From the NCBI GenBank assembly GCA_005222975.1, contig NJBI01000001.1, forward strand, positions 64,001-128,000: 64,000 nucleotides of DNA, read 5' to 3'. Under the pieces are notes generated by a model, which saw nothing but the letters and a program-made list of their open reading frames with translations, did no database searches and had not been told where the DNA came from. Position numbers and translations under genes: made by a program. Numbering within the stretch: the first letter of the stretch is position 1; every line of letters starts with the position of its first letter. Below are positions 36,163-55,098 of this stretch, in pieces. This DNA comes from Promethearchaeota archaeon Loki_b31. GTDB lineage: Archaea > Asgardarchaeota > Lokiarchaeia > Sigyniarchaeales > SOKP01.

Positions 36163-37113
36163 ATGTCGGAAAATGTATTTGAACATATTAAAATTGAATG
36201 GCCCACAAAAACAGACGAACAAGGTCATATTATTCGAGAAGGGACAATTGATGGAAATTACGCGGTAATATCAATTAACAGACCAGATCGATTAAATGCT
36301 TTAACAAATCAAACAGTTTCAGAACTTGCTCAAGCTTTACGACTTATGGAAACTGATCCGAGCGTAAGAGCTGTAGTATTACGAGGTACAAAGAATGTAA
36401 CTAAAAAACCTTCCTTTTCGGTAGGAGCTGATTTAGGTGCTGGTTTCGGTAAAGATCTAAAACCAAATATCCCTTGGCATATGGCTTTAGCTATGAGATT
36501 ACGACATCGTGATTATGATGAATTAGAACAATTTAATAAACCCTTAATTGCTGCTGTTGATGGTTTTGCTTTAGGTGGGGGTATCGAATTAGTGCTTACA
36601 TGCGATATTGTTATTGCTTCTGATAGATCAATATTTGGGGTACCTGAAATCAATCGAGGAATTTTTCCTGCTAATGGCGGTATTACCCGCATGGCAGAGA
36701 GAGTAGGGCTTAATAGAGCACTCCGCATGGCTTATTTTGGTGAGCATTTCGAAGCTAAAACGATGCTCGACTGGGGACTTGTCACTTGGATTGCGCCTGC
36801 TGGAGAAGAATTTGAAAAACTTGTCCACGAAAAAGCCAAATGGCTTGGTGATGCTCCAACAACAGCATTATTTGTTATAAAGAAGGGTGTTAAATTTGGA
36901 ACGCGCTATCCGCAATTAGGCCTTATCATGGAACAGATGGGTTTTGGAATCAACCAAGTATCCTTTGATGCAAAGGAAGGAATAATGGCTTTTAACAGAA
37001 AAGTTAAATGTCCAAATTGCGGCGGAAAAGGTAAATTTGAAGACGGTACAAAGTGTGACATGTGCGGTGGCAGAAGAAAGATAAAGGATACACCTCATTT
37101 TAAAGGAATTTAA
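36163..37113 (+). CDS. Enoyl-CoA hydratase/isomerase with an inserted DnaJ-type zinc finger
   Basis: INRPDRLNAL, FSVGADL, KPLIAAVDGFALGGGIEL, FGVPEINRG; CPNCGGKG...CDMCGG near the C-terminus; GAGGT upstream. Confidence 0.92.
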   Translation: MSENVFEHIKIEWPTKTDEQGHIIREGTIDGNYAVISINRPDRLNALTNQTVSELAQALRLMETDPSVRAVVLRGTKNVTKKPSFSVGADLGAGFGKDLKPNIPWHMALAMRLRHRDYDELEQFNKPLIAAVDGFALGGGIELVLTCDIVIASDRSIFGVPEINRGIFPANGGITRMAERVGLNRALRMAYFGEHFEAKTMLDWGLVTWIAPAGEEFEKLVHEKAKWLGDAPTTALFVIKKGVKFGTRYPQLGLIMEQMGFGINQVSFDAKEGIMAFNRKVKCPNCGGKGKFEDGTKCDMCGGRRKIKDTPHFKGI

Positions 37114-37211: not shown

Positions 37212-37760
37212 ATGGCAAATATCGAAATAATCGATGAAATTAACGAAGGAAATCTTTTTCTTAGGAAGGTTTCTAAAGATGACCTTTCTTTTTTTTATAA
37301 TAGTCTTAATAATAAAGAGATGACTAATTTTTTGTCGTTAGGACCGCTAAGATCTTTAGAACATTCAAGAAGATTAATCAAAAATTATCTAAAATCATGG
37401 GATAAATATCTTCAATTTAATTATGTTATAGAATTACGAGATGATAAAAGTAAAAGTAGGATTGGTTCAGCTAGTCTCTGGAATATAAGTTGGTTTCATA
37501 ATCGTTCTGGTGTTGGAATATGGATTCTTCCAGAATATTGGGAGAAAGGATTAGGTAAACGAGTAATAAAATTACTTAAAAATATTGCTTTTAACCATTT
37601 AAATCTAAATAGGATCGAAGCACATATCGCTGTTAAAAATGAAAGGTCCATCAAAATGTTTAAAAACTCTAACTTCGAAGAGGAAGGAATACTAAGAAAA
37701 TATCTTAATATTAACGGTAAATTTTATGATGCTTTGATACTTTCTTCTTTTAAAATTTAA
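37212..37760 (+). CDS. GNAT N-acetyltransferase, RimJ/RimL family
   Basis: GIWILPEYWEKGLG, LNLNRIEA...NERSIKM...FEEEGILR. Confidence 0.9.
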   Translation: MANIEIIDEINEGNLFLRKVSKDDLSFFYNSLNNKEMTNFLSLGPLRSLEHSRRLIKNYLKSWDKYLQFNYVIELRDDKSKSRIGSASLWNISWFHNRSGVGIWILPEYWEKGLGKRVIKLLKNIAFNHLNLNRIEAHIAVKNERSIKMFKNSNFEEEGILRKYLNINGKFYDALILSSFKI

Positions 37761-38203
37761 AAAACTCCAGGACTTATTACAAAATTTCTCAAAAGTCCTT
37801 TAGGTTTTATCATATCATTAATATCCTTAGAGAAACTTTTAAAAGGAGCAACATTTCCGTTAAAATTCATCAATTCGCTTTTAAATTTAACAAAGAAATT
37901 ATCAAAGATTTTAACAGCAATATTGTCGATTGACTTTTTTTTCAGCTTTTTATTATCGACTTTACTATCACATTTTAAAATCAGATGAAAATTAGTTCTA
38001 GGATGCGTTTTAAAATAAAATACGCTTCTTTTCATTTTTAAAGTGGTTAAACTCTCTTTGAACCCGTATTTGGTAAATCGGCAAATCTGGTCGAAATAGC
38101 TACCAATTAATTGATAATTATTATCCTCATTTGAACTACCGCTAAAGTTATGGTAAAATATGGGAATGCCCGTGTTATTAAGAATAATAATCTCTTGGAT
38201 CAA
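37757..38203 (-). CDS. Stand-alone longin-domain protein
   Basis: MIQEIIILNNTGIPIFYHNF...LIGSYFDQICRF...FNGNVAPF; matches the longin parts of 15055 and 29781. Confidence 0.75.
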   Translation of the reverse strand: MIQEIIILNNTGIPIFYHNFSGSSNEDNNYQLIGSYFDQICRFTKYGFKESLTTLKMKRSVFYFKTHPRTNFHLILKCDSKVDNKKLKKKSIDNIAVKIFDNFFVKFKSELMNFNGNVAPFKSFSKDINDMIKPKGLLRNFVISPGVF

Positions 38204-38308
38204 TATTAATCCAAAAATTAAATTGATTTTATACTATTTAATACCTTCGTTAAAAAATTATAAACCGTTTGATATTAATTAAACTGGTTATTAAGAAGAG
38301 AATAAAAA

Positions 38309-39277
38309 CTATTTTTTTTTAAAAACAGCTTTTAATTGGCTCAATATTTCTTTAAATATTTCAAGAGCTCCAGAATAATCGTCATATTTCAAGGCTTCGA
38401 TACCTTGGATGTTTAAATTGTTAACCTTAGTTTTTAATTCTTCGCTTTTGGAAACTTCCCTTATCTTATTTTCAATAATATCAATATATTCAGTATATTT
38501 CTCTAAATAATGATTTTTACCAATAAATCTTGAAATTTTAATAATTTTCTTAATATTGTTTATTGCTTGCTCAAATTGATTTTGAGAAACATTTTGTTTA
38601 ATTTCGCTTTCTAAATCTTTTAAATCTTCTTCTAATTTAAGATATTTATCCTCAGCATCAATTAAACTTTTCATTTTTATTTTTAATTTCTGTTGATAAT
38701 CTAAGAAATCTCCTTTTTGCAAAAATTCTATCTTAGAGTTAAGTATTTGTTTTGCCTTATCAAATTCGTAATTATCTATTAATCTTGAAACTTCTGCCAA
38801 TGAATGTTCAATGTCTTCATTGATATCAATTTTTTTTTTTAATTCTAAAAATATTGCTTCGGAAGTTTCCCACATTTTCAGCGTTTCGGTATCTTTAAGC
38901 TTTTTCAGAAGAGTTTTTGCTTGTTCTAATGTTTCTTCTGCTAATGTGATATTATTAGTACTGATATAGCTATTAAACTGGATTTCTAATGGTTCAAGTT
39001 GTTTTTTTAGAGTATTTTGTTGTTTTTCAATTTCAATAATTTTATTATTTTCTTTAACTTTTTTATAAAGGTCTGCAATGAACTCTCCTTCCTCCCTTAC
39101 AATAGAATATAATTTAGCATCTTCAGCTATTTCCATTATTTCTTCTGCTATTTTTATTGCGTCATCAAATTTACCCATTAAATAGTGGTTATTCGCTATT
39201 ACTTTTAACTCATCAATTTTAGATAAAACTACTATTTTTTTCTTATTATTAGTTTCTTTGTCTGAGTTTAAATCCAA
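38309..39277 (-). CDS. TPR-like helical-repeat/coiled-coil protein
   Basis: About 5 helical repeats (GKFDDAIKI, YEFDKAKQI, NQFEQAINN, DDYSGALEI); paralogous to the C-terminal part of 39280-40341. Confidence 0.7.
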   Translation of the reverse strand: MDLNSDKETNNKKKIVVLSKIDELKVIANNHYLMGKFDDAIKIAEEIMEIAEDAKLYSIVREEGEFIADLYKKVKENNKIIEIEKQQNTLKKQLEPLEIQFNSYISTNNITLAEETLEQAKTLLKKLKDTETLKMWETSEAIFLELKKKIDINEDIEHSLAEVSRLIDNYEFDKAKQILNSKIEFLQKGDFLDYQQKLKIKMKSLIDAEDKYLKLEEDLKDLESEIKQNVSQNQFEQAINNIKKIIKISRFIGKNHYLEKYTEYIDIIENKIREVSKSEELKTKVNNLNIQGIEALKYDDYSGALEIFKEILSQLKAVFKKK

Positions 39278-39279
39278 TA

Positions 39280-40341
39280 CTATGCACCCGTCAAAGTTTT
39301 ATTCTTAAATTCTAATTTTTTGATAATTTTTTCAAAGATTTCTATAGCTTTAGATTTTTCACCTTTTTCCAAATTATTAAGGGCTTCCATACTTACTTGA
39401 GCTATTTCACTAACTGTTTCTTTTTTTGCTTCATTATATTGGGTTTCAAATTGTTTCAAACTATTTAAAACATCATCATCAAATAAATTCTTAATCTCAG
39501 CTTTAATTTTTCCAAAAAATTCTTTTGCTTGCTTTAAATTACCTTTATTGGGACCTGTTTTAAACGAATTATAGAATTCATCAATTTCCTTTTTTATTTT
39601 TTCTTGTTCGATTTTCAAACTATATATCATGTTTTCATCTTTTAATATTAGTTGCTGGGCTAAGGGAATTGAAGAAATGTTGTATTCATCTTCGTATTTT
39701 TTTTTGAAATCATCTACTAGGCTATGTGCCTCTCGATAATTCTCTACCTCCACTAACTGGTTAAAATTTTTAATTCCTTCCCTACTTTGATGTTCTATTT
39801 GGTGAAGAATTTCACTAGCGCTCTCTCTCGATTGAGCTTCGTTGATAAAGTTGATTTGATCTTGCTCAAGAGAAACATCGTCTATATCCTTGGCAAGGTT
39901 AACAATTTTCTGAGCAGCATTAATTGCCATATCGTAATTTTCTGAAATGAAATACTTATCTACCTTTTCTTTTAACCTGTTTATTTCAGAAAGAATTGGT
40001 AACAAATTAGTCTCTAGCTTTTTAATTCTAACTTTCAGGACCTCTTCTGTAATCCCAATAACATTTAAAAATTCCGCAGGTTCTAATCCTGATTCGATTG
40101 TAATGTTTCTTAAAATCTTTAATTCCGGATACTCACTTGAAATAGCTCCCCGTATTTGTGGGATAAGTTTTTTCAAGCTTTGCGAGACTTTTTTCCCAAT
40201 CCAAATATACACTAATCTTTGATTTGGCACGTAAAATGTTAAGATATCAAACAGAGTAAAGCTAAGGAGTATTTTCTCTTCTGAAATTTCCTTAAAGGTT
40301 CCAGAATAATTTAACTTAAAAATTTTAATATTAGAACTCAT
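39280..40341 (-). CDS. Single gelsolin-like domain fused to TPR-like helical repeats
   Basis: DILTF...VYIWIGKK.S...IESGLEPAEFL gelsolin-repeat pattern, then helical repeats. Confidence 0.75.
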   Translation of the reverse strand: MSSNIKIFKLNYSGTFKEISEEKILLSFTLFDILTFYVPNQRLVYIWIGKKVSQSLKKLIPQIRGAISSEYPELKILRNITIESGLEPAEFLNVIGITEEVLKVRIKKLETNLLPILSEINRLKEKVDKYFISENYDMAINAAQKIVNLAKDIDDVSLEQDQINFINEAQSRESASEILHQIEHQSREGIKNFNQLVEVENYREAHSLVDDFKKKYEDEYNISSIPLAQQLILKDENMIYSLKIEQEKIKKEIDEFYNSFKTGPNKGNLKQAKEFFGKIKAEIKNLFDDDVLNSLKQFETQYNEAKKETVSEIAQVSMEALNNLEKGEKSKAIEIFEKIIKKLEFKNKTLTGA

Positions 40342-40472
40342 CTATACAATCATTAAGTTATGATAATATTTCAATTTTCTTTAGTATAAATTAAAATTAT
40401 AATGTCCAATAAATATTTTAAGTTATCATAAGTGAAAAAAAAAAAAATGAAAAATAAAAAATTGATTAACTT

Positions 40473-43400
40473 TTAATTCTTAGAACTTTCAACGGGTTTC
40501 TTTATAATCTGTTTTGGTTTAGTAATTTGTTCTACGGGTCTTCCTTTCAATAATTTGGATGTCTTATTTAATTCACTTTGGTATTCAACACTGAAAGCTT
40601 TTTCTCTCTCCGTTATATCAATTCTTGGATTTTTTGTTTTTCCAAGTGTTTTAGAAAATTTTCTAACTTTTCTAACTGGTTTGGGATATTTCAAATATTT
40701 TTGGTAAGCGTAAATGTAACCTCCAATTATTATAGCCGCTGAAGTTATAGCAATTATCATGATTAAAATCAGTAATGCTTCTTCTGCGGGTGTAATAGCA
40801 CTCACCGTTATCTCAAAGTTTTCAAATTCATAATTATCTCCGTAATAGGCGGTAATAGTAATTTTAATAGTACCTTCAGGTATATTTTCAAAAACTATCT
40901 CATATATTCCATCATTGTCTGGATCCACAAGAAAACCATGTCCAAGAGCACCACTATATGACACAATTGCGCCTTTTATTGTTCCTCCAAAATCTAAATC
41001 ATATAATACGACTTTTATTGTTACTGCATCTCCGGGATGAACCGATATTTTTGAGATTCCATCCTCCGTGGTAATATTCGTATAAATTCGTCTGATGTCG
41101 ATTCTGAGATCGTTAGTCTGAAGTATGTAATTTTCTTTTTCTGCAGAAACTGCTATGATTCTTATCCCAATATCTAAAATGCTTGAATTGAATGTATAAG
41201 AATATTGTTTTAATGTTTTATCTTCAGTTAAACTATTTGATATCGCTCCAAATAAAGTAACTGTGGCATTTTCAATGTGATTACCACCTAAGTCAGTATA
41301 TCTTACAGTTATGTTTAAGAGTTTACCGATAGCAATATCAGTAGATGGATCAATAGTCATATTTATGCCATTTAGGTAAATTTCTAATAGCGTTCTCCTT
41401 TCAGTCACCTCCGTAATAAAGCGAATCGATTTAGGGTTATAATTAGTCAAATTAGCAAAAATTGATAAATAATCAATCCCTAAACCTAATTCAGAAGCAT
41501 TCAACAAAAAACTATATTGACCAAGGATGGGTTTTTCTACGAACGACTCGGAAAGTCCCCCTCCAGCTAACTTTATTGTCGCTCCACCTAAATGATTAGA
41601 AGAGGCATCTTTATAAGTGACTGTAATATTTAATTTTTGCCAAAATTCAATTGAAACTACATCGTCTTCATATTTTTCAGTGCCATTTATAAATAATTCT
41701 AAAAATGACGCTTTTTCAGTTATAAAAATCCTAATTGGAATAGATTGTGGTTGGTACATGTTAGCTTTAACTGTAATTATCATTGAATATAGCTTATCTG
41801 GCTGGTATCCTGGACCAGAAGCATTACAAGTGAGCGTATACACACCTTGAGTAACCATAACAAAGTGCTGTTCACCTGCCCAATTTGTCGAAAGATTATT
41901 TGTTTCAATTCCAATACCACTATATATTTCAGTATAATTAAATTGAATTGTAAAATTCTGCTCGAAAGGAACGCCAGTAAAATAGTCATTATCAACTGTA
42001 AGAATTGTATTTTTGATGATGCTAATTGTAATGTTTGCTTCACTACTTACAAAAGCAGGCGAATTTGCATAGATCGTCAATGTATTATTGCCCGCATTTG
42101 GAGCTCCAGTAACATTAAATTCAAGAAAGTAATAACCTGGACTTATTTCATTAAAATATTGGATTATTGAAGGGTGAGTAAAATTATAAGTATAAATAAT
42201 CGCATTTTCGATCGCATCAAAGTTTTCTAAATCGTTGAATGATACTCTTAAATTTAATACTGAACCATCAATTATATCCTCATAAAAGCTGATGTCTGGT
42301 ATAAGCTCAGAATCGTGCCTAACGCTAAATTTTTTATAAATAATCCCTGTTTCGTTCAAACCATAAATTGAGTAAGAATTATTCCACGTTATAATTGCTT
42401 CATATTCTCCAACTTCATAATTAGGTGGTACCGAGGGAATTTGAAACGCATTGAAATGAACATAACCATTAGAGTCAACTGAAGCAAATTGACTTTGACC
42501 AGACCATAAAGTGCCATTCGGAAACCTAATTTGGAGAAATGCTTTTGTATTTTGAATGTAGCTTGAAACCTCTAGAGAATTTGTAATTTTTGCTGTAATA
42601 TTAATATAATCGCCGCTTAAGAAGTTGTCATTTCGAACCCAGGTTCCCGTCGCGTTATTAAAGATCGTTAAATCTTCGCAATAGTTAGGTGAAATCGCTT
42701 CAAACTTCCAAAATCCGTCTGGATTAGTAGAAATTATATCTACTGGTATCACTAATCTTCCGGGTAAAGAATTATCGCATAAGATTAATATATTGGAAGA
42801 AGGATTTTCAGGTTCAAAAACAGCGGTAATAACAACATCAGTAGGGAATTCAAGCAGCATTTCTGATTCTGAATATCCCGTTGGAATAGCAATAAATCCA
42901 TAACTCTCCCAATTCACAGAACTTACATTATTTACAGAAAAGATAGTTCCTAAAGAATCAGCATAAGTTTCGTAATTTGTTTCGGGCGCATTCTTTATCC
43001 CGTATAGATTTAAATTACTCCTCAAGTTGATGTCGTAATTTCCTAATTCTCCTACATCAGTACTGCTGAAATTTGCAAAAACTTTAGTAGATTCCCAATC
43101 TCCTTCAATTTCAACAGTTCCGCGACCCCAGTCAATATCTTGTACAATTGTCTGGTTCATATTTAACTCAATATAGGATGGAAGAACTTTAGCTTCAACA
43201 ATTAGTTCTACATTATCAACATATATCCTTTGATAATCGTCGTTAGCAAAACCAGAAAAGTTTCCCCCTCCTACACATTCTAAAACAAGATTTATATCAA
43301 GTATAGAATTGTTTAAAGGCTCATTTGGAAAAATATTAGATGAATTAGTCCAAATATTTTGAGGAATAGTAAAACTGTGCCATGTATTTACTCCATACTG

Positions 43401-44174
43401 TAATAGTGTGTAAGTACCTATAGAATAAACTCTTTTAGCATTTAAATATATAGAAAATGCCCATGAATTAAATTGAGCCAAATGATTTGGATAGAGATCA
43501 AATTTTAGATTACTATCTATCATTTTTCCACGTGGTATTTGTAAAGAACTGCTCCACCAACATTTATCATCAGGATCATATGTGCTCCATGGAGGTACAA
43601 CCGTTTCGTCGTCATCCATTCTTAATTCTAAACAATCGTGTCCTCCAATATTCGATAAATAATTACCGCTCATAGGATTAGTACCGAGACCTGTATCATT
43701 ATATTCAAAAGTCCAGTTTTGATAATTATTATGAATCCATGTAGTGTCGTTTTCACCAGCATTAGCCGTACCGTTATCAGCACCATAGTTGAAAGTAGCA
43801 TTATTCCAATTTCGCTCGTCAACCAATCCCTCTATTTCTGCGCTCATTTTATACCCTTTCCAACCACTACCTAAAGGTATATCAACCATGCCATAATCCC
43901 CTTCAGTAAAGCTTACCAGTAGGTCGTAATCCGTTCTGTTTGCCAAGTGAGTTAAGTTCCAAGGTGCACCAATCCCACTATGTATATTATCAAAAGATAG
44001 ATCTTGCCCATTTAACATGTTTTCAAGATTAAAATCGTCTTTTTGAATATTTTTAGCATCAGTATGAATCAGCGAATCAAAGGAAAGTTTAGAAAAGTCA
44101 AGAATTAAAAGTAGAATTAATATTGACCCAATTATAACCAAGCGATGATATTTTTTCTGAGTTTTTATCCTCAT
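40473..44174 (-). CDS. Large surface glycoprotein, class A (signal/TM - beta-rich ectodomain with Ig-like repeats - TM - conserved basic tail)
   Basis: Hydrophobic N-terminus, many NxS/T sequons, repeated NITVxY..GA.V..Y units, C-terminal TM then KYPKPVRKVRK. Confidence 0.85.
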   Translation of the reverse strand: MRIKTQKKYHRLVIIGSILILLLILDFSKLSFDSLIHTDAKNIQKDDFNLENMLNGQDLSFDNIHSGIGAPWNLTHLANRTDYDLLVSFTEGDYGMVDIPLGSGWKGYKMSAEIEGLVDERNWNNATFNYGADNGTANAGENDTTWIHNNYQNWTFEYNDTGLGTNPMSGNYLSNIGGHDCLELRMDDDETVVPPWSTYDPDDKCWWSSSLQIPRGKMIDSNLKFDLYPNHLAQFNSWAFSIYLNAKRVYSIGTYTLLQYGVNTWHSFTIPQNIWTNSSNIFPNEPLNNSILDINLVLECVGGGNFSGFANDDYQRIYVDNVELIVEAKVLPSYIELNMNQTIVQDIDWGRGTVEIEGDWESTKVFANFSSTDVGELGNYDINLRSNLNLYGIKNAPETNYETYADSLGTIFSVNNVSSVNWESYGFIAIPTGYSESEMLLEFPTDVVITAVFEPENPSSNILILCDNSLPGRLVIPVDIISTNPDGFWKFEAISPNYCEDLTIFNNATGTWVRNDNFLSGDYINITAKITNSLEVSSYIQNTKAFLQIRFPNGTLWSGQSQFASVDSNGYVHFNAFQIPSVPPNYEVGEYEAIITWNNSYSIYGLNETGIIYKKFSVRHDSELIPDISFYEDIIDGSVLNLRVSFNDLENFDAIENAIIYTYNFTHPSIIQYFNEISPGYYFLEFNVTGAPNAGNNTLTIYANSPAFVSSEANITISIIKNTILTVDNDYFTGVPFEQNFTIQFNYTEIYSGIGIETNNLSTNWAGEQHFVMVTQGVYTLTCNASGPGYQPDKLYSMIITVKANMYQPQSIPIRIFITEKASFLELFINGTEKYEDDVVSIEFWQKLNITVTYKDASSNHLGGATIKLAGGGLSESFVEKPILGQYSFLLNASELGLGIDYLSIFANLTNYNPKSIRFITEVTERRTLLEIYLNGINMTIDPSTDIAIGKLLNITVRYTDLGGNHIENATVTLFGAISNSLTEDKTLKQYSYTFNSSILDIGIRIIAVSAEKENYILQTNDLRIDIRRIYTNITTEDGISKISVHPGDAVTIKVVLYDLDFGGTIKGAIVSYSGALGHGFLVDPDNDGIYEIVFENIPEGTIKITITAYYGDNYEFENFEITVSAITPAEEALLILIMIIAITSAAIIIGGYIYAYQKYLKYPKPVRKVRKFSKTLGKTKNPRIDITEREKAFSVEYQSELNKTSKLLKGRPVEQITKPKQIIKKPVESSKN

Positions 44175-44176
44175 CT

Positions 44177-47100
44177 TTATGTATTACCTCCTTCTGTAGG
44201 TGTTTTATCAGATTCAATAAATAATTTTTTCTTGGTAAATTTATCCGTTTGAATGATGCTTTCTGAGGGCTTCCCTTTTAAAAATTTAGAACTTTTACCA
44301 ATCTCATCTTTAAACCGATTATCGAAAGCTTTTTTGCGAGGAATGACGCTTATATTTGGCGATTTCGTTTTTCTTAAAGTTCTCCGATATTTTCTAACCT
44401 TTCTTATTGGTTTTGGGTATTGTAATACTCTTTTATATAATATCAGATAACTAACTAATGAAATTACTGTAGTGATAGCTGCGATTAATAGAATTAGAAA
44501 GAGTAAAAATTCAAATGGAGGATTTATTACCGTAATTGTCACTTCATACCTCTCAAACTCATAATCATCACCCTTAGTGGCAGTGATAGTAATTACATAT
44601 GATCCAACAGGTACATTCGTTAAATCTATCTCATATATTCCATCTGAATTAAGATCAATAAGCTCTCCCTCTCCAAATTGCCATCTATATATTACATTTG
44701 CATATTTAATAGTTCCTCCAAAAACCTCATCAGTCAAAACTACTCGAAGAGGAATGATACTTCCAAATTGAGCCGTTATAATTGATTCACCAGTGACAGT
44801 TGAAATATTTGTCTTAATTCTTTGAATATTTAATCTTAGATTGTCAGTTTGAAGCTGAAAGTTTGCTCTTGTCGCTTCAAGAGTGATTAGTCTAACTCCT
44901 ATATCTAATTGAGCTGTATTTAAAACATACGAATATTGTTCAAATAATAGGTTTTCACTTAATATTCCACTAAAATCGCCAGATAGTTGTAATAAAGCCC
45001 CTTGCACATGTTTGTTATCGGCGTCCATATATTTTACAGTGACATTTAATATTTGACCAATAGTAAGACCCTGTGTTGGATCGTCAGTTACATTTATTCC
45101 ATTAAATAGAATTTGAATGTTAGTCGGTTTTTCTATAATCTCTGCTATAAATGGTATAGATTGTGGTTCATAATTGACCAATTCAGCAAAAATAATAAGA
45201 TTATCTATTCCTTGTCCTAAATCAGTAGCGTCTAAAATAATATCATATTGATTAAAAGAAGGATTTTCGTTTAATTGGTATGAGATAGACTCACCTGTTA
45301 TATTAATATTTGCTCCACTCAAAGGATTTCCAAGAATATCTTTATAAAAAACTGTAATATTAAGTTTTTCCCATACATCAACTGTATATATATCATTAGG
45401 TTGTATTGCAGTATTATTAATAAATAATTCCAAAGACGATTTAAGCTCAGTAATAAAAACTTTTATCGCTATAGATTTAGCTTCGTATTCGTAATCATCT
45501 ACATAAAGATTTAGAGTGTAAAGCTGACCTGCAATATATCCGATAGTGCTACAAGTTAAGTTATATCTCCCTTGGGCAATTGTGACGAAAGAATAATTTC
45601 CTAACCAATCCGTCGAGAGAGAATCAGCATCTATTCCTATACTAGATGATTTTTCAGTATAATTGAATTGTATAGTAAAATTCTGTTCAAAGGGAACATT
45701 ATTTAAAAAATCGTTATCAACTGTAAGCTCTGTCTCTCTGATAATTCCAATTTTAATAATTACTAGTTTATTCACATAATTAGATGAATTAGCGTATATA
45801 GTTAAGGAATTATTACCTAATACCCCCCCACCTACGTTAAATTCGAGAAAATAATAACCAGGACTTATTTCGCTAAAATATTGTACTACCGAAGGATGAG
45901 TAAAATTAAACACATATACATGAGCATTTATTATTGGTTCGCCATTTATTATATCGTAGAAGGATACTTTTAAATTAAAGTTAGAATCCTCTATTATATC
46001 CCCATAAAAAAATTCGTCTGGTATAAGCTCGGAATCGTGAATAATGCTAAATTCTTTATAAATAATTCCTGTTTCGTTCAAACCATAAAAAGAATAAGAG
46101 TTATTCCATGTTATAATTGCTTCATATTCTCCAACTTCATAATTCGGTGGAATTGAGGGTATTTGAAAAGGGTTGAAATAAACATTGCCACTAGAATCAA
46201 CTGAAGCAAATTGACTATGGTCAGCCCATAAAGTACCATTAGGAAACCTAATTTGGAGAAAAGCTTTTGTATTTTGAATGTAACTAGATACTTCTGGAGA
46301 ATTTGTAATTTTCGCTGTAATGTTAATATAATCGCCGCTTAAAAAGTATTTACTTTGAATCCAAGCTCCCGTTGCATTGTTATAGATTGCTAAATCTTCG
46401 CAATAATTAGGTGAAATAGCTTCAAACTTCCAAAACCCATCTGGAGTAATGGAGATATCTTTTACAGGTAGGAATAAAACACCTGGAGTCGAGTTATCAC
46501 ACTGGCTAAGAATGTTCAAAGAAGGGTTTTGAGGATCAAAAACGCCAGTAATAACAACATCAGAGGGAAAATTAATTTTCATATCAGTTTCCTCATACTT
46601 CGTAGGTACCTTAACTCGACCATAACATAACCAATTAACTGAACTTTCATTATTTACCGAAAACTGAGTTCCAAGAGACCCTTCATTAGTTTCATAATTA
46701 CTTTCAGGCGTATGTTTTATCGCATAAAGGTTTAAATTCGTTAAAAGATCGATAGAAAAAGCTCCCAATTGGCCAACATCATCGCTACTAAAATTAGTAT
46801 ATACCTTCCCATCAGCACTCTGCCAATTACCATTAATTTCTATTTTTCCTTTCCCCCAACTAATATCTTCCACAATTGTATTATTAATTTTTAATTTTAT
46901 GTCTGAAGGTTGAGCTTCAGCTTTAGTTATTAATTCTACATTATCAATAATGACTTGCTGATAATCTATATTTTCACCATCTTCAAACCCATAACTTGCG
47001 CTGGTTGCGGTATACTCTAAAGCGATTTCAATATTAATCATTGAATCGTTTAAGAATGTTGTTGAATATACATCAGATGTGTTTATCCAAAGACCCTGAG

Positions 47101-47920
47101 GAACTGTAAAGTTATGCCACGTATTTTGGCCTCGCTGTTTTAATGTAAATAAACCTTCAGAAAAAACTTGAATACCATTTAAAAATACTCTGAACTCCCA
47201 AGAGTTAAAACTTATAATGTGAATTGGATTTACTTGAAACTTTAACCAACTATCAATGACCCTCCCTCTTGGAACATGAAAAGAACTAGACCATGAACAC
47301 TTATCTCCAGTATCATATCTATAACGATCACCACCTGAACCAGAATGCCATGACCCACCCATTCTTAATTCTAAACTATCATGGTTTTGAGTATTAATTG
47401 GTGTAATAACATTTTCATCTAAATAATTACCAGACATAACATTTGGGTAACCAATAGCATCATTTACCTGAAATGTCCAATTTTGGTAACTATTTGCGAT
47501 ATATAACGAATCATTTGCTCCAGTAGCATATGTATTATTATCACCAAAATGAAAAGTACCATTGTTCCAATTTCTTGAATCAAATAAATCATTTATCGAA
47601 GCATTTAGACTATATCCAACCCAATCGCTTTCTAATGGTACGTCTACTATATCATGTGAATCGTTGCCAAATTTTACGGGAAGATTATAATCCGTACGAT
47701 TTGCCCAATGAGTAATATTCCATGCATCTCCTATACCATCATACTTATTATCAGAAGTAAGATCGTTATTTTTAGGAATATCTATAATGTTTTCAACTAT
47801 TTTTCCATTTAAATTATTTGGGATGTAGTTAACATTTATTATAGCTGTGTTTACTACGAAAATACTTAACAGAGTCAATAACGCGTACAACTTCTTCTTT
47901 CTATTTGTTGCTAAATTCAT
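44177..47920 (-). CDS. Large surface glycoprotein, class A paralog
   Basis: Colinear with 40473-44174; tail QYPKPIRKVRK; its 3' end contains the GGAGG for the next gene. Confidence 0.85.
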   Translation of the reverse strand: MNLATNRKKKLYALLTLLSIFVVNTAIINVNYIPNNLNGKIVENIIDIPKNNDLTSDNKYDGIGDAWNITHWANRTDYNLPVKFGNDSHDIVDVPLESDWVGYSLNASINDLFDSRNWNNGTFHFGDNNTYATGANDSLYIANSYQNWTFQVNDAIGYPNVMSGNYLDENVITPINTQNHDSLELRMGGSWHSGSGGDRYRYDTGDKCSWSSSFHVPRGRVIDSWLKFQVNPIHIISFNSWEFRVFLNGIQVFSEGLFTLKQRGQNTWHNFTVPQGLWINTSDVYSTTFLNDSMINIEIALEYTATSASYGFEDGENIDYQQVIIDNVELITKAEAQPSDIKLKINNTIVEDISWGKGKIEINGNWQSADGKVYTNFSSDDVGQLGAFSIDLLTNLNLYAIKHTPESNYETNEGSLGTQFSVNNESSVNWLCYGRVKVPTKYEETDMKINFPSDVVITGVFDPQNPSLNILSQCDNSTPGVLFLPVKDISITPDGFWKFEAISPNYCEDLAIYNNATGAWIQSKYFLSGDYINITAKITNSPEVSSYIQNTKAFLQIRFPNGTLWADHSQFASVDSSGNVYFNPFQIPSIPPNYEVGEYEAIITWNNSYSFYGLNETGIIYKEFSIIHDSELIPDEFFYGDIIEDSNFNLKVSFYDIINGEPIINAHVYVFNFTHPSVVQYFSEISPGYYFLEFNVGGGVLGNNSLTIYANSSNYVNKLVIIKIGIIRETELTVDNDFLNNVPFEQNFTIQFNYTEKSSSIGIDADSLSTDWLGNYSFVTIAQGRYNLTCSTIGYIAGQLYTLNLYVDDYEYEAKSIAIKVFITELKSSLELFINNTAIQPNDIYTVDVWEKLNITVFYKDILGNPLSGANINITGESISYQLNENPSFNQYDIILDATDLGQGIDNLIIFAELVNYEPQSIPFIAEIIEKPTNIQILFNGINVTDDPTQGLTIGQILNVTVKYMDADNKHVQGALLQLSGDFSGILSENLLFEQYSYVLNTAQLDIGVRLITLEATRANFQLQTDNLRLNIQRIKTNISTVTGESIITAQFGSIIPLRVVLTDEVFGGTIKYANVIYRWQFGEGELIDLNSDGIYEIDLTNVPVGSYVITITATKGDDYEFERYEVTITVINPPFEFLLFLILLIAAITTVISLVSYLILYKRVLQYPKPIRKVRKYRRTLRKTKSPNISVIPRKKAFDNRFKDEIGKSSKFLKGKPSESIIQTDKFTKKKLFIESDKTPTEGGNT

Positions 47921-48074
47921 ATTCTTTATACCTTTTTTTAATTTTAAAAATGATTAATAAAAGATGTCAATATTAATAATTAGTAAAATTATTCTTTTAA
48001 ATTAATTTACTAATGTTTAGTCGAAATAATAAATAATGCAAAAAATAGTTAAAATAAAATATTCTAGAAATTTA

Positions 48075-49715
48075 TTATTTTGGTAATACTCCTTCTTTTT
48101 TGTCGAGTAATTTATCTCTCAGTATTTTTCCATTCATCTGGGTGCCTTTTAGAATTTTGTCCGTTTTCTTTAGCTCATCGTGATAATTCATATTGAAAGC
48201 CGTCTTGCGCGTAACAATTTTCAAATCAGGACCTTTTTCTTTTGTTAAAGTCTTATTATATTTACGGATCTTTCGAACAGGAACGGGATATCTCCATACT
48301 TTAATGTAAGCTATTAAAAACCCCGTTAATGCTACTGCCGCTACGAGAGCAATTATAAATATTCCACTAAAAAACCAGGGTGCTTCTTCAGTGTCAGGAA
48401 TGAACTCCGTATAAGAAATCTCTAAATATACATCTGTTATCGAAATAGTGATGTTTTGATTTAACGCAAAAGTGTCTGCTAAAAATACTTGAATTGAAAC
48501 TGAGATATTAACGTCTTTTAAAATTAAACTTGTTACGTCAAAACCTCCTGTTTTTGCTTCTTGAAAAATGGTGTCTGCTGAGCTTAACTTAATTGTTTCT
48601 AACAAAGAATTATCATTTATAAAAAAGCGTATTTCCGAATTTGGAGATGAATCGACTGGCCATAGCTGGTCAATTTTATATTGAAATTTGAGATTTCCTT
48701 CAGTAATTTCGATATTTTCTCCACTGAGAGTGTTTCCAATTTGGTTCCAAGATGCTGTGGTAAAGCGATCAATCTTTTTTTCGTAAGTAAATGTGAGATT
48801 ACAAGATTTTATCAGTAACGAATCCCATCTATCCCTATCATTCAACCAATTGTCCTCACACCATATTCGCATCCCTATTGTTACAGTGAAATTTCGATTA
48901 TCACTTGTTAAGACGGAAGTAAGATAAAAAATCAAATCTTCTTCTGAGACTGTTGTCATAAATGTATCTGTCATATAATCATATGCTCCAGCTGAATCTT
49001 TTCCAAGATCAACAGTTTGATTGTAAGCAACTTCATAGATTTTACTTTTTGTCAAATCTGATAATAGGATATAGAACCTAACATAGTCCCATGTATAATT
49101 CTGAGTGTTTCCTGAACCCGTAGCATCACCAGGAGCTTCTATTCCCCCACCACCTGATGCTCCTGGGGAAGCTGTAACTGTAGCATTAACTAATGCTGAA
49201 AGCGATGCAGATGTAATTATATAATCGGACATATCAATTGGCATTGTAACATTTCTATCCCAATGTACGCTTGGAAATTGATCAGCTTGTTCATTATACT
49301 CATGAAAAACTTCACAACCATAGGGTTCTATTGTGCCTGTATCTGGATATAAGGGGAATTCAGGATTATGAACCTTTGTCCATTCTGAACTTAAAGGTGT
49401 ACCAGATATATTTGAATAACTTCTTTGTTCGCCTATTATTTCATAACTCGCTTGGCCAAAGCTAGAAATGGGATTCACATCAGAAGCGTCTCCTTGAACT
49501 TGACTTTCCCATGGATCAACTGGTATTGAAAAATTAGAATTTTTCAACCATTGTTCTTCGTATTCGTATATCGTTGAAAGGTTAAGTGAATTGTATCCGT
49601 AATTTTTCTTTAAATTCTGGTTTTGAATATTTAAAGAACTTAAGAATATCATACCTGAAATTAAAAATAACGTTATAAAATATACTGATTTCTTTTTTAT
49701 TCGCAATTTATTCAT
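48075..49715 (-). CDS. Surface glycoprotein, class B (~550-aa unit) with conserved basic tail
   Basis: Signal/TM; ectodomain motifs DMSDYIITSAS, LIFYL, WCED, SPNSE; TM then RYPVPVRKIRK. Confidence 0.85.
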   Translation of the reverse strand: MNKLRIKKKSVYFITLFLISGMIFLSSLNIQNQNLKKNYGYNSLNLSTIYEYEEQWLKNSNFSIPVDPWESQVQGDASDVNPISSFGQASYEIIGEQRSYSNISGTPLSSEWTKVHNPEFPLYPDTGTIEPYGCEVFHEYNEQADQFPSVHWDRNVTMPIDMSDYIITSASLSALVNATVTASPGASGGGGIEAPGDATGSGNTQNYTWDYVRFYILLSDLTKSKIYEVAYNQTVDLGKDSAGAYDYMTDTFMTTVSEEDLIFYLTSVLTSDNRNFTVTIGMRIWCEDNWLNDRDRWDSLLIKSCNLTFTYEKKIDRFTTASWNQIGNTLSGENIEITEGNLKFQYKIDQLWPVDSSPNSEIRFFINDNSLLETIKLSSADTIFQEAKTGGFDVTSLILKDVNISVSIQVFLADTFALNQNITISITDVYLEISYTEFIPDTEEAPWFFSGIFIIALVAAVALTGFLIAYIKVWRYPVPVRKIRKYNKTLTKEKGPDLKIVTRKTAFNMNYHDELKKTDKILKGTQMNGKILRDKLLDKKEGVLPK

Positions 49716-51388
49716 TTCTGATCTAACCCTCCTGTATTATTAATGTTGGTTGATTTTTTCGTATCTAAACTTTTATGTATTTTATCAGATTGTTTAGAAA
49801 TTCCAATTGTTTGTGATGCTGGTTTAGTTTTAGTATATTTTGCTGATTTACTTAATTCCTTTTTATACAACTTATTAAAAGCATCCTTGTTACTTGTTAT
49901 GTGTTTTTTTGGAGGATTAGCCGTTCTCAGAGTCTTTTTGTATTTTCGCACTTTTCTTACAGGTAAAGGATATTTAAATATTCTTTGATACAACACGAAA
50001 TATGTAGCCACAATTCCTCCAGCAATTACAGCAATAATAGCTAGAAGACGGAATATCTCTGGTTCACCAAATATATCTGAGCGAATTTCTATGTATGAAA
50101 TTACAAGAGATACATCGTCAATCGATATAACAATTGAACGATTTAACGAAAATTCATCTGCTAGATATACTTTAATAGAAAGTCCAATGTTAACATTTTT
50201 TAGAATCAGCTTAGTAACGTTAAAACCGCCTTGCTTTGCTTCTTGAAAGCTAGTTGGTACTAGATTCAGTTTAAGAGTCTCTTCGTGGGAGTTATTGTTT
50301 AACAGAATTTGTAATTCTGAGTTTGGAGATAAATCAGTAGGCCATTTTTGGTCGATTTTATACGTAAATTTAAGTTTAGCCCCTGTAATTTGTTTATTTT
50401 CACCACTAATATCGTTTCCAATTTGGTTCCAAGAAACACTTGTGAATTGATTAATTTTTTTCACGTAACTAAAAGATAAATTGCACGATTTAATTCTTAA
50501 AGAATCCCATCGATCACGATCGAAATTGAAATTATCGACACATTTGATTCTAATTCCAAGTGTAACTTTAAAGTGATGATTATCACGCTCAAAAAGAGAG
50601 GTTAAATAAAATATTAGTGCTTCTTCTACCACAGTATTCATAAAACTATCTAAGATATTACTAATTTCAGGATCACTATCTTGTCCTAAATCTATACTTT
50701 GATACCACGCTACTTCATATTTTTCGTTATCTTCCAAATCTGAGATAAGTACATAAAATCTTGCACTATCATAATCACCAGGATTAGTTACGGTATCATT
50801 AGGCGCATCCACTCCAAAAGCGAAATTAGCGGATGTTGTTGTTACTGTGGCATTAAATACAGCTGAAATCGATGCAGAAGTAATAACATAATCTGACATA
50901 TCTACTGGCATTGTAATATTTCTTTCCCAATGAATACTTGGAGATTGAATGGGGTCATCTGGATCAATCCAAGTATGATTCACTTCGCAACCATATTCAT
51001 CAATTCCGTGAAAATCGGGTAAAGCGGGGAAAGCAGGGTTAGTAACATTTAACCAATAGTCAGAAGTTGGCGTTCCCGAAATTTCCGAAAAGTATCCTTG
51101 ATCTCCAGTGATTCCTAAATTGGCTTGACCTGGGCTGAAAGTAGCAGTAACATCGGAAGAGTCACCTTCTATGCTATAAAACCAAGGATCAATTGATTCA
51201 TCGAATCCCGTATTTACAAGCCATTCATCTGTATGAGGAATTACGGTTGAGGTTTTAATCATTGTTTGTTGTTCTGCAATATTTAGATTTTGATTCAATA
51301 TAACTAAATTTAAAGACGCGATGAAGAGAACAATAACAAAATAAAGATAGAATTTTTTCTTGATAAATTTAATAACCATTAGATTCAC
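49712..51388 (-). CDS. Surface glycoprotein, class B paralog
   Basis: Same motifs; tail KYPLPVRKVRK; ATGA overlap with the downstream gene. Confidence 0.85.
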   Translation of the reverse strand: MNLMVIKFIKKKFYLYFVIVLFIASLNLVILNQNLNIAEQQTMIKTSTVIPHTDEWLVNTGFDESIDPWFYSIEGDSSDVTATFSPGQANLGITGDQGYFSEISGTPTSDYWLNVTNPAFPALPDFHGIDEYGCEVNHTWIDPDDPIQSPSIHWERNITMPVDMSDYVITSASISAVFNATVTTTSANFAFGVDAPNDTVTNPGDYDSARFYVLISDLEDNEKYEVAWYQSIDLGQDSDPEISNILDSFMNTVVEEALIFYLTSLFERDNHHFKVTLGIRIKCVDNFNFDRDRWDSLRIKSCNLSFSYVKKINQFTSVSWNQIGNDISGENKQITGAKLKFTYKIDQKWPTDLSPNSELQILLNNNSHEETLKLNLVPTSFQEAKQGGFNVTKLILKNVNIGLSIKVYLADEFSLNRSIVISIDDVSLVISYIEIRSDIFGEPEIFRLLAIIAVIAGGIVATYFVLYQRIFKYPLPVRKVRKYKKTLRTANPPKKHITSNKDAFNKLYKKELSKSAKYTKTKPASQTIGISKQSDKIHKSLDTKKSTNINNTGGLDQK

Positions 51389-51553
51389 ATTTAATATAAT
51401 TAAAATTTAAGAATTGAAAATTGTAGAATATATTAGGATATAACTAGCCACACTTATAATATTTAATAATTTTAAATTATAATTACATAATATTTTAATT
51501 TATTTCTTTTTTTTAAAAAAAGAAGTTAAAAAGGAATGTGATTTATTCATTTC

Positions 51554-54500
51554 TCATTTTTGAATATGTATTTCTTGTTGTTTTCCAAGCAATTTATCCC
51601 GCACATTTTTACCATCTAGAGGGGAGCCTTTTAAAAACCTAGTAGTTTTGTTTATTTCTTCTTGAAAAATCTTGTTGAACGCGTACTTGCGATTAATAAT
51701 ACGCACATCTGGTTCTTTTTTGCTTGTTAAAGTCTTTCTATATTTTCTAACTTTTCTCACTTCAACAGGATATTTCAATATCAGTTGATATAGAATTATG
51801 TAAGTAGCTATAATAGCAGCTCCAATTGAAGCTAAGATAAAAAAAGTCAAGAACATGAAGTTTGGTTCTAGAGGAACGATCACATCGTAGGTTATTAAAA
51901 GAATTACATTATCAATTGATATCATTAGATCTCTATCTAGAATAAACTCATCAGCAATATATACTTGAAGAGAAACGTTAATTTTATCATCATTTGGTAT
52001 TAAGTTTGTAACGATAAATCCGTCTTCTCTAGCTTCTTTAAATGTCGTCTCTAATTCGTTTAATCTAATAGTCTCATTATACTCAACATTGTTTATAAAT
52101 ATTTTAAACCTAGAATTAGGAGATAAAGAACTCACCCATGTTTGGTTGATTTTATAATCAAAAAACAATTTTGCGTCTGTAACTTCAATAGTATAGTTGT
52201 TTTCTTCAATTTTTTCTCCATAATTATTCCATGTTAAGAAAGAGAACTGATTTATTTTTTTTTCATATGAAATTGACATATTAAAATTTTTTATCAATAA
52301 CATCTGCCAATTATCACTATCTCCTGGATGTCCACTATCTTCACACCAAATATATGTACCTAAAGTAATTGCAAAATTTTGATGATCGTATTGTAACGCC
52401 TGTTCGAGATAAAATATCAGAGTTTCTTCGTTAACTGGACCAATAAGAGTATCATTTAATTGTGTTATTGGGACTGGATCATCCTTGCCTAAGTCGTCTG
52501 TCTGATATTGAGTTGCTAGGAATTCTCTATTTTTATTTAAATCAGATATTATTAAAAAGAATCTCGCAAAATCCCCTGTTGCAATTTGAACTGTCGTCCC
52601 TCCACTAAGTGTATCCCCAGGACGATCAATCCCTCCTCCATTAACTGGAGATGCTTGTACTGTGCCATTTATCCAACAATTTAAAGAGGCTGAAGTGATG
52701 ACATAGTCAGACATATTCACATCCATAGTAAAGTTTTTCTGCCATTGCACTCTAAGCGACTGTGGGGCGTTATCTGGCCAGAAATGACTTGTATACCACC
52801 CACTTTCGTCCATTCCATAACTATCAGGAAGTGGTAATCCATCTTGATCCTCAATTTGAATCCAACCACTACTGGTCCCATTTTCGATGAAAGTTTTAGA
52901 TCCAACATCACCATTTATTATATAATTAGCACTACCATTGTTAATTTCTGCATGTATATCTGATAAATCACCTTCTAATAAAGAAGTCCAATTCTCAATT
53001 GAATCAAAATTTGTATTATCTATCCACTGCTGAGTCACTGATTTTCTTATAAAAGTATTTGTTGGACTTTCTTGAGAAAGCTTTAACAAGTTTCTAGAGT
53101 AAATCGAATCATTAGGAATATAAATAACTATTATGGGCAGAATTATTAATCCGATTAGAAGAAATATTAAAAACACAAGTTTTTTAGTGGATTTTAGTTT
53201 GTTAACTTTCTTTTTTAGATTACTCTTAACTTTTTTTGCTTTACTTGAGCTGGATGCATGTGTTTTTGTCGAAGTTCTTTTTAGCATCTTGCTATACTTC
53301 TTATTAAATAAATTTTTTCGAGTTGTTATTGTAACATTTGGAGTTTTCTCCTTTCTCAAAGATTTACTATATTTTCTTACTTTTCTTACTGGCTTTGGAA
53401 ATCTTAAAACTCTCCTGTAGTAAATAAAATAAACCAATAATAATGCTGATGCGATTAACGCACTTATTAATAGGATAAGAAAAGTTGTGTCTCGTTGGGC
53501 AGGGAAAAATAAATCGTAATAAACATGTAAGGACACATTATCTATCGTGATCGTATAGTTTTCAATTAAATTAAATTCATCTGCGAGAAATATTTGGATT
53601 GTAAGATTTATATCATAATTTTCTGGAGTAATACTAGTTAAATCGAATCCTCCTACTTTAGCTGGATTCAAATTCGTATCTGCTTCGCTTAATTTGATAT
53701 TCTCGCTATATTCCTGGTCATTAATTAAAATTCTAAATTCTGAATTAGGAGATAAAGAAACTGGCCACAATTTATCAATTTTATAATCAAAGAATAATTT
53801 TGATTGAGTAATATCTATAATTCCACCTTTATTATTAATTCGCTCCGTAGGATATTTCCATGACAATGAAGTTAATTGGTTAATTTTTTTAACATAAGAT
53901 ATGGTTAAGTTACAAGCTTTAATATAGACTTCATTAAATTCGTCTAGATCCGTAATACAATTATCTTCACAATTGAATTCCATTCCTAGAATAATAATAA
54001 AATTTTGAAAATCGCCGTTTTCTAAAACTTGATTGAGAAAAAATATCAAATCATCCATATTTTCCGCTACAAAAATAGTATCATTTAAATAATCATAACT
54101 GTCAGCAACTTGTGCACCATCCTGACCTAGAGTAGATGTTTGATAATGTGTAATTTTATATTTCACATCCTTGTCGAAATTAGCAAGTCTCACATAATAT
54201 TTAATGTAATCTCCTTCAACAAAAGTAGACATACCAGCATCCCCTGCTACTTCAACACCTTCCCAATGCCAGACATCCCCATCCCCACAACCTACATAAG
54301 CTTTTGCAGTAGCATTAATCAAAACATTTAATGATGCTGAAGTTATAGTATAATCTGACATGTTAAGTGGTGTTGTGATCATTTTCTCCCATTGAATACT
54401 CGTTTTTTGGTAAGCGTTTACGGTTGTTCCTTCATGTTCAGCCCATAGGTGAGAAGCAAAAACTCCTGACTCATCACTTCCATGTCCTTGAGTTGGATAG

Positions 54501-54898
54501 ACGGGAATTTCAGGATTAGTCGAATTATACCAATCTTGCGAAGTTGTTGAATTAAGGATGCCTGAAATTAACGTTGAAGTATAAGTCTCCCCGATAACTT
54601 TAAAACTTGCTTCTCCACCAACGATGCTTGTATCCACATCGCTTATATCACCAGCATACTCGCTAATCCAACCAATATCATTATCAAAATCACTATTAAT
54701 AACCAACTGTGTTTCATGTGATTCCTTAAACCACTCTTCTGTAAAGTCCTCTTGGCTTAAGTTTATACTGAGACCATGATTTGACTCATTTTGTAAACTA
54801 TTATTTTGATTAAAGAAAAAGAATGATGTTACGATAGATATGTTTAATATAACAATAATATAGAGAATTTTATTTTTACTTGATAAATATTTTTTCAT
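51554..54898 (-). CDS. Surface glycoprotein built from two complete class B units in tandem (4 TM segments)
   Basis: NMSDY.ITSASL, SPNS and the TM+PxxVRKVRK tail each occur twice. Confidence 0.85.
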   Translation of the reverse strand: MKKYLSSKNKILYIIVILNISIVTSFFFFNQNNSLQNESNHGLSINLSQEDFTEEWFKESHETQLVINSDFDNDIGWISEYAGDISDVDTSIVGGEASFKVIGETYTSTLISGILNSTTSQDWYNSTNPEIPVYPTQGHGSDESGVFASHLWAEHEGTTVNAYQKTSIQWEKMITTPLNMSDYTITSASLNVLINATAKAYVGCGDGDVWHWEGVEVAGDAGMSTFVEGDYIKYYVRLANFDKDVKYKITHYQTSTLGQDGAQVADSYDYLNDTIFVAENMDDLIFFLNQVLENGDFQNFIIILGMEFNCEDNCITDLDEFNEVYIKACNLTISYVKKINQLTSLSWKYPTERINNKGGIIDITQSKLFFDYKIDKLWPVSLSPNSEFRILINDQEYSENIKLSEADTNLNPAKVGGFDLTSITPENYDINLTIQIFLADEFNLIENYTITIDNVSLHVYYDLFFPAQRDTTFLILLISALIASALLLVYFIYYRRVLRFPKPVRKVRKYSKSLRKEKTPNVTITTRKNLFNKKYSKMLKRTSTKTHASSSSKAKKVKSNLKKKVNKLKSTKKLVFLIFLLIGLIILPIIVIYIPNDSIYSRNLLKLSQESPTNTFIRKSVTQQWIDNTNFDSIENWTSLLEGDLSDIHAEINNGSANYIINGDVGSKTFIENGTSSGWIQIEDQDGLPLPDSYGMDESGWYTSHFWPDNAPQSLRVQWQKNFTMDVNMSDYVITSASLNCWINGTVQASPVNGGGIDRPGDTLSGGTTVQIATGDFARFFLIISDLNKNREFLATQYQTDDLGKDDPVPITQLNDTLIGPVNEETLIFYLEQALQYDHQNFAITLGTYIWCEDSGHPGDSDNWQMLLIKNFNMSISYEKKINQFSFLTWNNYGEKIEENNYTIEVTDAKLFFDYKINQTWVSSLSPNSRFKIFINNVEYNETIRLNELETTFKEAREDGFIVTNLIPNDDKINVSLQVYIADEFILDRDLMISIDNVILLITYDVIVPLEPNFMFLTFFILASIGAAIIATYIILYQLILKYPVEVRKVRKYRKTLTSKKEPDVRIINRKYAFNKIFQEEINKTTRFLKGSPLDGKNVRDKLLGKQQEIHIQK

Positions 54899-55098
54899 AT
54901 TAATCTCAAACCCAAGATTCCTATAATTGATATATAGTAAAAAATTTTAGCATAAATAAATTACAGTTTTAAAATTAGAGCAACATCAAATTCATTTTTA
55001 AATTATTGATTAAATTTAAGTTAATAAATTACTTAAGACATAATTATATATATTTTAATATAATTAATTTACTTATAAAAAATTAGAGGCAAATCAAA

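Follow-up and report, generated by a model that had tools for sequence, protein, structure and literature searches.

An array of surface glycoproteins in a Lokiarchaeal genome, whose members carry different ectodomains and end in the same cytoplasmic tail, raises the question of what this tail binds inside the cell. The array lies in a 64,000-bp stretch of DNA from the archaeon Loki_b31 (the window; C61:64001-128000, from an assembly of 3.5 Mb in 99 contigs, 92% complete and with 30% G+C). Public homologues of the window proteins carry Lokiarchaeota or Promethearchaeota labels. Eight adjacent open reading frames (ORFs) occupy 37757-54898, all on the minus strand, just where the original prediction had placed them, and five of them encode membrane proteins. 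That prediction proposed that the tail plugs into an intracellular adaptor, and it sought the link to actin in the three downstream genes, read as a gelsolin-domain/TPR gene, its TPR-only paralogue, and a longin gene. Our analysis points to a different partner. The locus probably comprises two neighbouring modules: a receptor array with the genes up418 and up737, in which the tail docks up418, and a separate gelsolin-helical-longin trio. From modelling, we predict that the shared tail and up418 form an undescribed receptor-tail/adaptor pair. Although its gene lies outside the interval of the original prediction, up418 is a better-supported tail partner than the trio.

The observation of a shared tail is real and lies far beyond chance, as follows from its gap-free alignment, from the specificity of the tail hidden Markov model (HMM), and from the dissimilarity of the two ectodomain classes, A and B, that precede it. 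The six tails align gap-free over 62 columns, with invariant positions at Y5, P12, R16, K17, R19, K20, L25, P31, and F42. The core reads YP-x-P-V-R-K-V-R-K-Y and is followed by L25, P31, I35, R38, and F42. In P0004, this basic tail of ~60 amino acids (aa) is encoded at 40533-40718; the other five copies lie at 44264-44449, 48135-48320, 49820-50002, 51620-51802, and 53249-53431, all on the minus strand. It had been claimed that one tail follows all six ectodomain-transmembrane (TM) units, across classes whose ectodomains do not align; both the positions of the copies and a BLASTP comparison of class A with class B, which showed no similarity (best E 0.36), bear this out. The net charge over the last 80 residues is +13 to +17. 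Since a TM helix precedes this strongly basic C-terminal segment, the positive-inside rule places the tail in the cytoplasm.

When all six-frame ORFs of the assembly were searched with the tail HMM, the five array genes matched with E values of 1e-27 to 1e-55, and nothing beyond them appeared at E<10. Because the match is confined to these genes, the tail is not a genome-wide positive-inside pattern. A profile search of 1.84 billion representative proteins returned 186 clusters carrying the tail at E<=0.001, and it was recognisable in 26/151 genomes sampled across the phylum. When conservation was scored in windows of 25 aa over 41 class-B units, the proximal tail ranked first (0.62), with the best ectodomain windows barely below it at 0.61 and an ectodomain mean of 0.46. 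Neither this tail nor the up418 family had been described in the papers that our literature searches brought up. Separately, a subset of metagenomic tail proteins (P0251, P0252, P0253, P0255, P0292, P0309, P0312, P0319, and P0332) carries an extra conserved acidic helical motif, ~30-50 residues past the tail core, which the tails of the window do not have.

The gene up418 (P0399; 55099-56355, plus strand) is divergent from the array. It encodes a 418-aa protein that has no TM segment and is cytoplasmic. up418 has no Pfam match and no PDB sequence resembles it; in ESM Atlas, there is no model of either up418 or up737, and the matches were Promethearchaeota clusters. The protein occurs in 41/41 genomes of the order and is 79-97% identical within the genus. 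up737 (P0400; 56390-58603, plus strand), always paired with up418 in the order up418 then up737, combines a CxxC...H...H motif, a TrmB-like winged helix-turn-helix (wHTH), a coiled coil of ~280 aa, and a conserved C-terminal domain. The 200 bp between the array and this pair (54899-55098) are AT-rich, and from the sequence they are a candidate shared control region for both sides.

A member of the up418 family lies within a few kb of nearly every tail locus, except where the locus is at a contig end or the tail match is weak. The two were co-located at 19 primary loci of the genus, at 10 loci of the sister genera, and at most loci in the other families of the order. In these other families and at secondary loci of the genus, the homologues of up418 and up737 are usually co-directional with the tail genes, separated by gaps of a few bases. 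Primary loci have a close up418 orthologue and a strong tail, while secondary loci have a 35%-identical up418 paralogue and a weaker tail. At a third locus of the same genome (C17:60182-67004), with 28%-identical up418 paralogues, the tail motif is barely recognisable; here, two 367-aa paralogues, 84% identical to each other, flank a 1410-aa single-pass protein that bears the motif next to the membrane. Judged by sequence comparison, up418 and the tail diverge in step across these three tiers of loci. Further afield, in families f5, f15, f17, and f23, up418 homologues lie beside single-pass proteins of 600-2000 aa with a diverged juxtamembrane motif: P12, hydrophobic residues at 15 and 18, basic residues at 16-17, and then K, L/I, G, P, and a stretch of R-x-R-acid. 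A regular expression recovered this motif at 10/29 loci, or at 12/29 when the f17 variant was included.

We next turn to the predicted contact itself. The complex was modelled from a tail alignment of 45 rows, with residues 466-546 of the class-B protein P0006 as the tail chain, and an up418 alignment of 15 rows. The tail/up418 model scored an ipSAE of 0.82, 0.82, and 0.78, while the best of three controls scored 0.00. In a benchmark, 58/80 solved complexes attained the mark, as did 2/110 mismatched pairs, counts that are rough here since our own alignments were used. The runs shared at least 82% of their contacts, and the predicted local distance difference test score (pLDDT) of the partner was at least 66. 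The PDB has no sequence similar to up418, which makes it unlikely that the predictor reproduced a known complex. The contacts run from tail residues 12-57 to the C-terminal half of up418 (residues 252-292 and 370-412). Residues 1-11 are free, as expected of a segment that adjoins the membrane. The interface takes in the invariant tail positions P12, K17, R19, L25, and F42, and it holds 9/41 of the invariant up418 columns (odds ratio 3.4, Fisher p=0.007).

The model predicts a salt bridge between tail R19 and up418 E409, where E409 touches tail residues 18 and 19 and the expected error for the pair 409-19 is 0.9 Å. Across the order and at the C17 locus, tail R19 is always paired with up418 E409. 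In family f15, tail D19 is paired with up418 K409 in all five homologues, and one f5 locus has L19 with L409. The sequences of f5, f15, f17, and f23 were outside the alignments given to the predictor. From a real interface, one would expect such a reversal of charge on both sides of a predicted contact, and it supports, but does not prove, the binding.

Several points weigh against the proposed pairing. The binding draws on one structure prediction and on covariation at essentially one contact pair, and the five f15 sequences represent one evolutionary event. In families f5, f23, and f17, tail position 19 is R or M and up418 position 409 is Q or G, which means that the pairing does not hold everywhere. 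Mean up418 conservation is not enriched at the interface (0.51, compared with 0.46-0.49 elsewhere; p=0.3-0.46). up737 has a TrmB-like wHTH and up418 seems, from its layout by eye, to contain winged-helix-like segments, so that the pair could be plain transcription factors encoded beside their targets. Moreover, the up418 family is wider than the tail, being present in 100/151 of the sampled genomes as against 26/151, and its members in families f9 and f14 lie among unrelated housekeeping genes. Tail binding therefore cannot be the only role of up418.

The nature of up737 bears on a first alternative, namely that up418 and up737 merely regulate the adjacent surface genes, with the tail conserved for topology, lipid binding, or membrane insertion. 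The wHTH of the window protein scored 18.3 bits to PF01978, under the cut-off of 25.6; however, the family was matched by 9/11 orthologues (best E 1.3e-7), and up737 resembles the TrmB structure 3qph with an E value of 1.8e-4. Regulators are often encoded beside their targets, the two gene sets share the divergent intergenic region, and the tail is strongly basic, all of which would suit mere regulation. On the other hand, such a role leaves the passing complex model with its null controls unexplained, as well as the charge reversal in sequences that the predictor had not seen. Besides charged residues, P, Y, L, and F are invariant in the tail, no further basic juxtamembrane segment of this kind was found by the HMM in the genome, and a coiled coil of ~280 aa is atypical of a TrmB regulator. 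We consider mere regulation unlikely.

If the tail is instead a docking peptide for up418, as we favour, then one adaptor would serve all receptors of the locus, because all end in the same docking tail. The receptors would be coupled through up418 to up737, so that their abundance or occupancy would control a DNA-binding or scaffolding protein. A possible route is that up737 is held at the membrane, either sequestered there or acting as a scaffold. Downstream of up737, the window encodes a 322-aa protein with ~7 TM helices and no Pfam match (58723-59691), followed by a gene of the metallo-beta-lactamase fold. In the sister genera, an ORF of ~330 aa lies directly 3' of up737; in size alone, it matches the lactamase-fold gene of the window.

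The receptors of this first module were originally described as five glycoproteins of two ectodomain classes. Translations and BLASTP confirmed the five proteins and the two kinds of ectodomain, but the classes turned out to be modules of one family. Class A comprises P0004 (40473-44174) and P0005 (44177-47920), of ~1240 aa each and 54% identical; P0005 is built of an A head, a middle region, an immunoglobulin-like (Ig-like) stalk, a TM helix, and the tail. Class B comprises the single-pass glycoproteins P0006 (48075-49715) and P0007 (49712-51388), of ~550 aa each and 50% identical. In P0008 (51554-54898), two class-B units are fused in one ORF, in the order ectodomain-TM-tail-signal anchor-ectodomain-TM-tail. 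Its hydrophobic segments near residues 9, 469, 568, and 991-1012 give a three-TM topology, in which the helix near residue 568 is the signal anchor for the second unit. Such tandem fusions were seen again in at least eight related genomes, one of them joining two B-stalk units in 1831 aa. All five genes are on the minus strand. In every unit, a hydrophobic segment at the N-terminus is followed by 10-36 N-x-S/T sequons, one TM helix, and the basic tail, and sequon density is 1.8-2.9 per 100 aa, compared with 0.2-1.4 in the cytoplasmic neighbours.

The ectodomains were annotated domain by domain, since single-linkage clustering had merged all of them through the shared stalk. In relatives, B heads also sit on the class-A Ig-like stalk, repeated up to ~14 times in proteins of 1200-2400 aa, which is why we treat A and B as modules of one family. 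Neither Pfam nor NCBIfam returned a surface-protein family for the array proteins, and a PDB sequence search gave no match for class-A or class-B ectodomains. Integrin or cadherin ectodomain modules were not found, as Pfam returned only sub-threshold matches to Big_1, PKD, and CarboxypepD_reg. The first module would then consist of one to six single-pass N-glycosylated proteins with interchangeable A or B heads, with or without an Ig-like stalk, and with a common tail.

The second module comprises the three genes that follow the array on the minus strand: P0003 (39280-40341), P0002 (38309-39277), and P0001 (37757-38203). The AlphaFold2 model of P0003 has a pLDDT of 85, and its residues 4-96 adopt the gelsolin fold, with a central sheet between a long and a short helix. 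The top Foldseek match was the actin-bound Thorarchaeota ProGel (7c2f_B; E 1.1e-4, TM score 0.79). The two structures align over 88 residues with a VIA Z of 12.5, a root-mean-square deviation of 2.0 Å, and 23% identity, while the Loki 2DGel 7whg gave a VIA Z of 10.0. No Pfam gelsolin family matched P0003 at E<=0.1, and none was precomputed among 120 homologues. The C-terminal part of P0003, ~250 aa of long helical hairpins, alternates long (33-43 aa) and short (15-17 aa) helices in the model. It reaches a VIA Z of ~10 to MIT- and TPR-like units, a value that, for helical proteins, falls below the stated noise level. P0002 is a paralogue of this helical part, with weak but collinear similarity. 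The gelsolin domain and the helical paralogy first proposed for these two genes are supported by structure and alignment, respectively, but their assignment as TPR proteins fell short: the TPR Pfam gathering score was not reached by P0002 (best 23.6 bits, cut-off 27), and P0003 was weaker.

The third gene was rightly read as a longin gene. P0001, a stand-alone protein of 148 aa, was modelled with moderate confidence (pLDDT 72), and the order of its secondary structure elements, beta-beta-alpha-beta-beta-beta-alpha-alpha, is the longin topology. Foldseek matched it to AP sigma, TRAPP Bet5/Tca17, Sec22b, and the Lokiarchaeal roadblock-longin 8yqg (E 1e-4 to 1e-3, TM score 0.5-0.7), while no longin-type family of Pfam or NCBIfam matched at E<=0.1. 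The trio probably acts on actin or on membranes as a separate cytoplasmic module.

These folds give some substance to the adhesion-to-actin system first envisaged, in which the tail docks on the gelsolin-helical, helical, and longin proteins and through them reaches Lokiactin. The gelsolin fold of P0003 is genuine, its closest match is an actin-bound Asgard gelsolin, and P0001 is a longin. In this genus, the gelsolin-helical gene directly follows the last tail gene on the same strand at 19/19 loci, whatever the type of that last gene (A, B-stalk, BB, or B), and in genus g16 the trio again lies beside the array, with a different gene order and larger proteins. However, adjacency within the genus says little, because unrelated flanking genes are equally syntenic at the same 19 loci: a GNAT acetyltransferase, an enoyl-CoA hydratase, and up418/up737. 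(The hydratase of the window, at 36163-37113, has a C-terminal sub-threshold match to the DnaJ-type CXXCXGXG motif, E 7e-4.)

Outside the genus, the linkage dissolves. At six loci of the sister genera g12 and g13, up737, up418, the tail genes, GNAT, and the hydratase are all in place, in this order, and the trio is not; the gelsolin-helical and longin orthologues were on other contigs or were not found. The genome G177, 100% complete in 10 contigs, has tail genes, up418, and up737 and no P0003-family match. Genus g14 has no trio at its tail locus, and neither do the secondary tail loci. In a closed genome of family f2 (G032, 4.36 Mb), the gelsolin-helical/longin pair lies at 0.56 Mb and the tail locus at 2.63 Mb, some 2 Mb apart. 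Within the genus, P0003 is just 36-92% identical, compared with 79-97% for up418. In the window, 13 consecutive T come straight after the stop codon of P0004, and TATA-like boxes lie 40-60 bp before the P0003 start (within 40342-40472). This suggests that P0003 is transcribed separately from P0004, although terminator- and promoter-like signals are to be read with caution in a genome of just 30% G+C.

Since the trio is absent or distant in g12, g13, g14, and f2, we regard it as a module of its own and not as a conserved partner of the tail. Its placement beside the array would be lineage-specific, limited to this genus and g16, and the conserved gelsolin linkage on which the original prediction relied was not found. 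What survives of its adaptor logic is the common tail, which does look like a docking site; the partners it named and the link to actin were left without support. We therefore hold direct docking of the tail on the trio to be very unlikely. In G032 (L047:6100-11001), a 914-aa gelsolin-helical protein is followed after 76 bp by a protein of 693 aa that ends in a P0001-type longin of ~120 residues, a fusion that hints at the helical and longin parts working together. At another locus (G010:C84:49581-49841), the order of the array is rotated and behind a class-A gene lies what is left of a gelsolin domain (96 aa, with one in-frame TGA and 52% identity to P0003 residues 7-93), which looks like the trace of a rearrangement.

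The gene that lies 13-36 bp behind the up418 homologue of families f10 and f21 encodes a protein of ~280 aa in which a P0001-like longin is fused to an Arf-like GTPase. This arrangement links the adaptor family indirectly to a P0001-type longin, and to that extent it also favours the trio as tail partner. These fusions, with a GTPase of Arf/Roc/Ras type, lie at L064:7566-8411, L084:9132-9983, and L083:9925-10764, and a similar one occurs in the window at 15055-15939. Alternatively, the tail could be a sorting or assembly signal, with up418 as a targeting or chaperone factor, e.g., for delivery to protrusions or for clustering. The tail/up418 model and the covariation apply to this alternative equally, and longin and Arf modules act in cargo sorting in eukaryotes. 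Yet vesicle trafficking has not been demonstrated in these archaea, and nothing in the present data separates sorting from signalling. We judge a sorting role quite unlikely.

Within our preferred reading, in which the tail docks up418 as an adaptor, other Asgard lineages may couple the adaptor to longin-Arf-like GTPases instead of up737. More broadly, and more tentatively, an ancient juxtamembrane motif might be read across the Asgard archaea by the up418 family, coupled to longin-Arf-like GTPases and to a TrmB-like coiled-coil protein, as a pre-eukaryotic receptor-adaptor-small-GTPase or cargo-sorting pathway; we consider this possible but doubtful. If true, the links to longin-Arf-like GTPases and to TrmB-like proteins would bear on how cells came to signal through receptors or to recognise cargo before eukaryotes existed.

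Lokiarchaeia in culture use protrusions filled with actin to crawl and adhere, and their membrane has been described as decorated with proteins (PMC13716822, PMC9834061). The work on Lokiarchaeum motility suggested that membrane proteins may serve contacts or adhesion and named no molecules (PMC13716822). The molecules that connect surface and interior in Lokiarchaeia are not known (PMC13716822, PMC9834061), and the tail with up418 is a concrete, testable pair. The natural covariation points to a charge-swap mutant of tail and up418, and the gene neighbourhood provides a phylum-wide rule for finding further receptors. Our results also correct an attractive idea: gelsolin genes neighbour the array in two genera and are not its conserved partner.

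The individual components can be set beside known proteins. Residues 4-96 of P0003 share the fold of the Asgard gelsolins (Thor ProGel and 2DGel, Loki 2DGel; PMC7444086; 7c2f, 7whg), whereas P0003 differs from them in having a single G domain fused to the helical hairpins and in lacking a Pfam gelsolin match. P0001 shares the beta2-alpha-beta3-alpha2 topology of longin proteins such as AP sigma, TRAPP Bet5/Tca17, Sec22b, and 8yqg (PMC10933270), from which it differs as a stand-alone protein with no Pfam match. The layout of up418 was compared by eye only with that of NPRL2/NPRL3-like longin plus winged-helix proteins, while up418 and the P0001 longin family did not match in a profile-profile comparison (probability 1.8%). 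In up737, the wHTH and the following helix match TrmB regulators (Pyrococcus TrmB, 3qph). Unlike TrmB, up737 has an extra N-terminal Cys/His motif, the long coiled coil after the wHTH, and an extra C-terminal domain, and neither the window protein nor 11 orthologues matched the sugar-binding effector domain of TrmB (PF11495).

The receptors differ from archaeal glycoproteins anchored by PGF-CTERM and archaeosortase, as no PGF-CTERM sorting signal was matched in NCBIfam and their C-termini are long basic tails instead of a PGF motif with a short end. In their logic, they resemble the integrin-talin/kindlin and cadherin-catenin systems, which likewise combine single-pass glycoproteins of varied ectodomains with a conserved tail, here predicted to dock one cytoplasmic protein. 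There is no sequence or domain homology to these systems, and the adaptor predicted here, up418, is no actin binder. A second likeness comes from bacteria. In E. coli, the regulator Mlc is held at the membrane by PtsG, so that a membrane protein sequesters a regulator. The proteins are unrelated, and in the archaeal case the link would run through a separate adaptor, as we infer; yet the proposed logic is alike, with a membrane protein whose cytoplasmic part holds or releases a cytoplasmic DNA-binding complex.

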